Origin: Escherichia coli
GTDB lineage: Bacteria; Pseudomonadota; Gammaproteobacteria; Enterobacterales; Enterobacteriaceae
Strand: one strand, 5' to 3'
Length of the DNA: 712 nt
NCBI RefSeq assembly: GCF_003334765.1
Contig: NZ_QOWT01000105.1
Shown piece by piece: positions 369 through 665 of the stretch. The notes beneath the pieces were generated by a model. It did no database searches, had not been told where the DNA came from, and saw only the letters and a list, made by a program, of their open reading frames with translations. How positions within the stretch are numbered: position 1 is the stretch's first letter; every line of letters begins with the position of its first letter. Position numbers and translations under genes: made by a program.

Positions 369-665
369 ATGAAAATAAACCAGCCCGCCGTTGCAGGCAC
401 CCTTGAGTCTGGGGATGTGATGATACGCATCGCCCCACTCGATACGCAGGATATCGACCTGCAAATCAACAGCAGCGTTGAGAAACAGTTTGGCGATGCA
501 ATTCGCACCACCATTCTGGACGTTCTCGCCCGCTACAACGTGCGCGGCGTACAGCTGAATGTCGATGACAAAGGCGCACTGGACTGCATTTTACGTGCAC
601 GACTGGAAGCCCTGCTGGCACGCGCCAGCGGTATCCCGGCTCTGCCATGGGAGGATTGCCAATGA
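369..665 (+). CDS. citD: Citrate lyase acyl carrier protein (gamma subunit), complete
   Basis: ATG at 369 to TGA at 663-665, 98 aa ([98 protein letters not shown]). Length and sequence match my recollection of E. coli CitD, including the conserved Ser14 (codon TCT 408-410) that carries the prosthetic group. It lies between citC and citE as in the canonical operon. Confidence 0.93.
649..654 (+). promoter_or_regulatory. Putative Shine-Dalgarno (GGGAGG) for citE, embedded in the 3' end of citD
   Basis: GGGAGG at 649-654, 7 nt upstream of the citE ATG at 662. This is typical spacing for an internal ribosome-binding site in a translationally coupled gene pair. Confidence 0.6.

Follow-up and report, generated by a model that had tools for sequence, protein, structure and literature searches.

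Gene content of the citC-citD-citE window

We analyzed a 712-nt stretch of Escherichia coli DNA, hereafter the window, which is 100% identical along its whole length to the E. coli chromosome and is found at an identity of at least 99% in 5,422 of 5,426 complete E. coli genomes. According to the RefSeq/PGAP annotation, it carries the 3' end of citC, the whole of citD, and the 5' end of citE. Its features, with the evidence that defines them, are as follows.

1–354, + strand: 3' end of citC, encoding [citrate (pro-3S)-lyase] ligase, with the stop TGA at 352–354 (frame-1 translation; RefSeq annotation of L001, a locus with 100% identity)
360–365, + strand: AGGTGA, the Shine-Dalgarno sequence (SD) of citD, within the 14-nt citC-citD spacer at 355–368 (sequence)
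369–665, + strand: citD, 98 aa, citrate lyase acyl carrier protein (gamma subunit), with the stop TGA at 663–665 (open reading frame; annotation; homologues with Pfam PF06857)
634–652, + strand: small predicted hairpin, 634–640 with 644–652 (RNA folding; thermodynamic prediction only)
648–650, + strand: TGG, encoding the conserved Trp near the CitD C terminus and contributing the first GG of the citE SD
649–654, + strand: GGGAGG, the SD of citE, inside the citD codons for Trp-Glu-Asp (sequence; anti-SD duplex of −10.2 kcal/mol)
655–661, + strand: spacer of 7 nt separating the SD from the citE start (sequence)
662–665, + strand: ATGA, the −4 junction, with the citE ATG (662–664) over the citD TGA (663–665) (sequence; open reading frames; annotation)
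662–712, + strand: 5' end of citE, encoding the citrate lyase beta subunit (frame-2 translation; annotation; six of six substitutions synonymous against a plasmid copy)

The three genes run in the same direction, no promoter-like site was detected in the window, and the single terminator-like match on the + strand (273–287) lies inside citC, 5' of citD. In the RefSeq annotation, the gene cluster reads citC-citD-citE-citF-citX-citG-citT and adjoins dpiBA; citCDEFXG is given as one transcription unit in supplement file 4 of PMC10666635. As expected of a bacterial citrate lyase operon, citC, citD, and citE are adjacent, and the CitD homologues carry PF06857. The gene for the alpha subunit, citF, starts 10 nt past citE in E. 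coli (+10); its SD is weak, and its ribosome-binding site (RBS) is very open. Further along, citF and citX are separated by 3 nt, and citX and citG overlap by 26 nt (10117–10668 and 10643–11521 of L001), so that several junction types occur in one operon.

Scanning for terminator-like stems followed by a T run returned four matches in the window, against 0.7 expected from shuffled sequences: the one at 273–287 and three antisense matches on the − strand, at 346–362, 383–398, and 491–513. All four fall in coding sequence or in the citC-citD spacer and are probably consensus noise.

Geometry of the citD-citE junction

Positions 641–670 read tctgccaTGGGAGGattgccaATGAtttcc, and the citD-frame codons at the end of the gene are CCA TGG GAG GAT TGC CAA TGA. 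The original prediction, made from the letters of the window, held that the citD stop and the citE start overlap at 662–665; this is borne out by the sequence, by the open reading frames, and by the RefSeq/PGAP annotation, which records a 4-nt overlap. It had also placed a GGGAGG inside citD, 7 nt 5' of the citE start, and the motif was indeed located at 649–654, followed by the spacer 655–661; every coordinate that it gave was correct. Its description of the motif as strong agrees with our duplex calculations, in which GGGAGG forms the best anti-SD duplex of the window (−10.2 kcal/mol; the runner-up reaches −7.4 kcal/mol).

GGGAGG occurs once in the window against 0.30 copies expected. The tetramer ATGA is present at chance (five copies against 5.03 expected) and is by itself uninformative; the signal is its placement at the junction together with its conservation. 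At the level of sequence, the junction displays all the features of the termination-reinitiation (TeRe) class, namely co-directional genes on one transcript, a −4 overlap, and an internal SD at canonical spacing.

The overlap would be an annotation artefact if citE truly started at ATG 647, TTG 656, or the internal ATG 710. The first two are in the citE frame, and ATG 710 encodes the conserved Met of the RRSM motif. Against these starts, neither ATG 647 (−3.0 kcal/mol) nor ATG 710 is preceded by an SD, and TTG 656 directly abuts the SD with zero spacing. Furthermore, citE codons 2–16 are conserved as protein across Enterobacterales, and each of the six substitutions that set these codons in E. 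coli apart from a plasmid copy with 83% identity (L002) is silent when read in frame with citE. Edwardsiella ictaluri has no start candidate 5' of the conserved KTRTRRS residues except the −4 ATG, which is likewise the only candidate ahead of conserved residues in several loci. On the grounds of the missing usable SDs, the synonymous codons 2–16, and the loci in which the −4 ATG is the only choice, we rejected the starts at 647, 656, and 710 and consider an annotation artefact extremely improbable. Judged by these comparisons, the start of citE at 662 is well supported.

In E. coli, ATG 647–649 spans the CCA and TGG codons and is unused. In Streptococcus, Enterococcus, and Tetragenococcus (loci L029, L030, L034, L037, L040, L056, and L066), the ATG that overlaps the Trp codon is the best-supported citE start and gives a −13 overlap.

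Conservation of the junction in E. coli and its close relatives

When a 32-nt junction probe (641–672) was searched against 5,426 complete E. coli genomes, 5,418 of them matched it exactly over at least 28 nt. In the plasmid copy L002, CAG TGA replaces CAA TGA. The change is synonymous in citD and turns the citE start from ATG into GTG; the 4-nt overlap is kept as GTGA, and the SD is identical.

The citC-citD junction is labile; the citD-citE junction is not. At 352–354, E. coli has TGA, as opposed to the sense codons TTA or TCA in five other Enterobacterales sequences (four species and the Citrobacter-like plasmid copy). In the annotation of the latter, citC runs to TGA 370–372, which overlaps the citD ATG (369–371) as ATGA (6369–6372 of L002). 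The presence of a stop in E. coli and of a sense codon in its relatives suggests that one T-to-G change turned an ancestral −4 overlap into the 14-nt spacer. The citD SD, ACAGGTGA, is invariant in the six Enterobacterales.

Comparison of the three junctions across bacteria

Using a 16-sequence CitD alignment as the query, we collected 80 loci from contigs representing one genome per species. They cover Enterobacterales, Pasteurellaceae, Vibrio, Aeromonas, alpha- and betaproteobacteria, Clostridia, Lactobacillales, Selenomonas, Treponema, one actinobacterium, and Bacteroidota. In each locus, the citD stop and the CitE homology were located, and the candidate with the best SD was taken as the citE start. 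The same rule was used at both flanking junctions; it favors SD-preceded starts equally at all three and is not an independent annotation. In three Klebsiella-type loci (L025, L036, and L045), the rule took a −16 start over a near-equal −1 start, which gives an overlap either way and leaves the tally unaffected.

Of the 80 loci scanned by tblastn, 79 have CitE immediately 3' of citD; the remaining one, L044, stops ~40 nt past citD. The two genes overlap in 73 of the 79 loci: by −4 in 45, by −1 in 11, and by a longer stretch (−13 to −19) in 17, so that 56 of 79 are at −4 or −1. The genes are separated by a gap of 0–6 nt in five loci and of 51 nt in one. In contrast, citE and citF overlap in just 18 of 69 loci, most lying at +1 to +10, and citC and citD in 13 of 40; the Fisher p values for citD-citE against these two junctions (1e-17 and 1e-11, respectively) overstate independence because the loci are related. 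The citE-citF distance is within −8 to +10, the range that Huber et al. deem compatible with reinitiation, in 47 of 69 loci. Our tallies agree with the COG-pair distances of Huber et al. 2023, whose supplement gives medians of −4 for CitD-CitE (quartiles −4 and −1; n = 160), 3.7 for CitE-CitF, and 12.4 for CitC-CitD (PMC10666635).

The form of the overlap differs by lineage, being −17 in Serratia, −13 in Lactobacillales, and −1 in the Klebsiella-type clusters. This suggests that the citD-citE overlap has been rebuilt repeatedly (−1, −4, −13, −17) without the genes ever being separated, which argues against a frozen accident. As far as can be read from sequence conservation, the citD-citE junction is under selection, though ATGA alone is no more frequent than chance.

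Selection on the Shine-Dalgarno sequence inside citD

A Trp codon stands 3–9 codons (mostly 4–6) ahead of the citD stop in 78 of the 81 loci listed. The residue that follows it varies (Glu in 34 loci, Gly in 26, Ser in 7, Asn in 7, Arg in 2, and Asp in 1), and the codon chosen for that residue extends the purine run: GAG over GAA in 29 of 34, GGA or GGG over GGY in 25 of 26, AGY over TCN in seven of seven, and AGR over CGN in two of two. A codon that keeps the SD (GGAG or GGGAG) follows the Trp in 63 of 69 loci, compared with 21.1 expected from the codon usage of the same loci (Poisson-binomial P ~3e-29, a value that overstates independence, as the loci are related). With one locus retained per 65%-identity cluster, the count was 18 of 21 against 5.5 expected (P ~3e-9). 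The SD is thus retained through amino acid changes, which indicates selection at the nucleotide level. Such selection, as read from codon choice, shows that the SD functions in citE initiation, and it fits reinitiation and fresh 30S binding alike.

In the C-terminal tail of CitD, the conserved Trp precedes Glu, Gly, Ser, or Arg and keeps an almost constant distance to the stop. We suggest, tentatively and with more doubt than confidence, that this tail may be shaped mainly by the encoding of the citE RBS and less by protein function, and that it may be dictated by RNA-level selection for gamma-to-beta coupling, conserved from Proteobacteria to Firmicutes, Spirochaetes, and Actinobacteria. If this were true, the D-E(-F) block would be translated as one obligately coupled unit, with the occasional CitD-CitE fusions as the final outcome of that pressure. 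Our search returned no solved structure of CitD.

Two single-polypeptide CitD-CitE fusions are predicted, P0173 (L083, 30–1262) and P0188. P0173 has 410 aa, with ACP and HpcH_HpaI domains joined by a linker of ~25 aa, and the next gene overlaps it by 26 nt. It was traced to one 2.8-kb metagenomic contig only and is possibly an assembly artefact; a real fusion would be a Rosetta-stone hint of a 1:1 demand for gamma and beta.

RNA structure at the citE ribosome-binding site

In the predicted E. coli hairpin, UCCC 634–637 pairs with GGGA 649–652 of the SD with a probability above 0.8–0.97. The predicted unpaired probability of G649–G651 is at most 0.03; the AUG is open, and AUG and spacer together are largely unpaired.

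The predicted cost of opening positions −13 to +3 in E. coli is 6.95 kcal/mol for citE, compared with 3.3 for citC, 3.0 for citD, 1.8 for citF, and 8.7 for the coding background. Over ~80 loci, the median costs are 7.3 for citE, 4.1 for citD, 4.7 for citF, and 9.0 for the background, with significant paired Wilcoxon tests for citE against each other class and for citD and citF against the background. The citE initiation region thus lacks the open signature of its neighbors, which fits a reliance on the upstream ribosome. Counting against coupling, the citE RBS does not exceed average coding sequence in predicted structure (6.95 versus 8.7 in E. coli; 7.3 versus 9.0 over the loci). The highest predicted RBS opening cost, 10.7 kcal/mol, belongs to citG.

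These predictions bear on the idea that the hairpin (634–640 with 644–652) masks the SD until ribosomes finishing citD melt it, whereupon a new 30S subunit binds. The predicted pairing of the SD and the more structured citE RBS, compared with its neighbors across loci, are what such coupling by RNA unfolding would lead one to expect. Nevertheless, the junction fold is no more stable than its dinucleotide shuffles (z of +0.8 to −0.1), the upstream arm of the hairpin is not conserved in relatives, even within Enterobacterales, and a search of Rfam gave no RNA family match. At −4 spacing, moreover, the unfolding ribosome would itself occlude the SD (PMC12548453). We rejected a conserved RBS-masking hairpin because of its shuffle-level stability and unconserved upstream arm, and we do not regard the E. 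coli 634–652 hairpin as a functional element. No stable, conserved RBS-sequestering structure, the mark of structure-mediated coupling, was found at the junction, and coupling through unfolding appears quite improbable.

The junction can be compared in this respect with rpmI-rplT and atpH-atpA (PMC12548453), in which the downstream RBS is likewise predicted to be partly paired without upstream translation. Those systems have defined, conserved, or mutationally verified inhibitory structures, often at larger spacings, whereas the citD-citE hairpin is weak, unconserved, and statistically unremarkable.

Probable translational coupling of citD and citE

Termination-reinitiation is the best reading of what the sequences show, namely the stop/start geometry, a strong and well-spaced SD, a conserved overlap, and an SD maintained by selection on its nucleotides: citE is probably translated mostly by ribosomes that have just completed citD. 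Such a ribosome would reach UGA 663–665 with CAA 660–662 in its P site, and GGGAGG 649–654 would then be within reach of the anti-SD of its own 16S rRNA. After release of the peptide, the 30S subunit (or the 70S ribosome) would be retained through the SD:anti-SD contact, and a one-nucleotide backward shift would bring AUG 662–664 into the P site and initiate citE. In this way, the synthesis of CitE would depend on that of CitD on their common citCDEFXG mRNA, as would suit a complex with six copies of each subunit.

Indirect support for coupling may be drawn from three of our comparisons: the overlap that persists across phyla compared with the unconserved flanking junctions, the nucleotide-level selection on the SD, and the more structured citE RBS suggested by folding predictions. 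Experimental precedent points in the same direction. In dual-reporter tests of five native E. coli −4 pairs, coupling was found in four, being strong in three and ~60% in one, with none in bioBF, and removal of the SD lowered reinitiation by 60–100% in the four coupled pairs (PMC6728339). In three further E. coli pairs, coupling was lost at a spacing of ~20 nt (PMC10666635).

The principal competing explanation is independent initiation, in which a free 30S subunit binds the strong internal SD and starts at AUG 662 regardless of citD translation, the overlap being a by-product of compaction and of the SD lying inside citD. An SD of −10.2 kcal/mol with a 7-nt spacer, followed by an AUG that, like the spacer, is predicted to be mostly unpaired, makes de novo initiation plausible and counts against coupling. 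The selection on the SD is equally predicted by independent initiation, and among tested pairs bioBF is fully de novo despite its −4 overlap and menDH is ~40% de novo (PMC6728339). Against this explanation, the SD core (G649–G651) is predicted to be paired, and opening the citE site would cost 2–4 times as much as opening those of citC, citD, and citF, with the same trend over 80 loci. The overlap is held in 73 of 79 loci, whereas the adjacent junctions of the same operons drift to spacers, and most tested E. coli −4 pairs are coupled. A ribosome terminating at 663–665 also covers the SD, so that fresh binding would have to wait for its departure; the argument is made in a 2025 review, according to which at close spacing a new ribosome cannot bind before the terminating one leaves, favoring reinitiation over unfolding (PMC12548453). 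Taken with these points, independent initiation seems unlikely to us, although it retains appreciable weight.

Comparison with characterized pairs illustrates both sides. With hyfHI, astDB, ydbH/ynbE, and menDH (PMC6728339, PMC10666635), citD-citE shares the 4-nt overlap, an SD at canonical spacing in the 3' end of the upstream gene, a common transcript, and products that are subunits of a complex. Those pairs were examined with premature-stop and SD-knockout reporters; for citD-citE, coupling is predicted from sequence. The SD of citE ranks among the strong ones, lying below the −8.4 kcal/mol threshold of the Huber work, and this gives de novo initiation more scope. The bioB-bioF pair (Huber et al. 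2019), also from E. coli, has an identical ATGA layout; the SD of bioF is very weak, and bioF is nonetheless initiated de novo. That bioB-bioF is uncoupled in spite of its −4 overlap means that geometry alone is no proof of coupling.

In the termination-reinitiation reading, matched stoichiometry would be the selected benefit. Citrate lyase contains six copies each of the alpha, beta, and gamma subunits (PMC6232273), which makes a 1:1 translational link between gamma and beta sensible, and among gene pairs spaced at −8 to +10 nt, those encoding subunits of heteromeric complexes are 4.5-fold enriched (PMC10666635). The original prediction had invoked coupling to keep the gamma and beta subunits at matched levels for the alpha6-beta6-gamma6 complex. 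Its identification of the citD stop, the citE start, and the SD inside citD stands, and coupling is the usual interpretation of such a layout, but the stoichiometric rationale extends from gamma to beta only: in E. coli, citE does not overlap citF (+10 nt), and coupling alone therefore cannot fix the full alpha:beta:gamma ratio.

Implications

The citD-citE arrangement is already known, and junctions of its class are the commonest in operons. Some 24% of unidirectional E. coli gene pairs lie within −8 to +6, with −4 the most frequent distance, and E. coli citD/citE is entered as "−4, CMPLX yes" in the supplement of Huber et al. 2023 (PMC10666635), a genome-wide catalogue in which it thus figures as a predicted coupled pair for subunits of a complex. 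In our literature search, no paper was found that specifically states or tests coupling of citD and citE, that supplement being the only place where the pair is listed. Beyond confirming a good annotation, the finding is of little importance in itself and opens no new question.

It does have practical consequences. When citD is deleted or tagged, or when citE or citDEF is expressed recombinantly, polar, coupling-dependent effects on citE should be expected, and the last ~20 nt of citD are worth retaining in constructs. The comparison across loci offers a clean teaching case of RNA-level selection acting within a coding sequence, in which the overlap and the SD are kept across phyla while the adjacent junctions drift.
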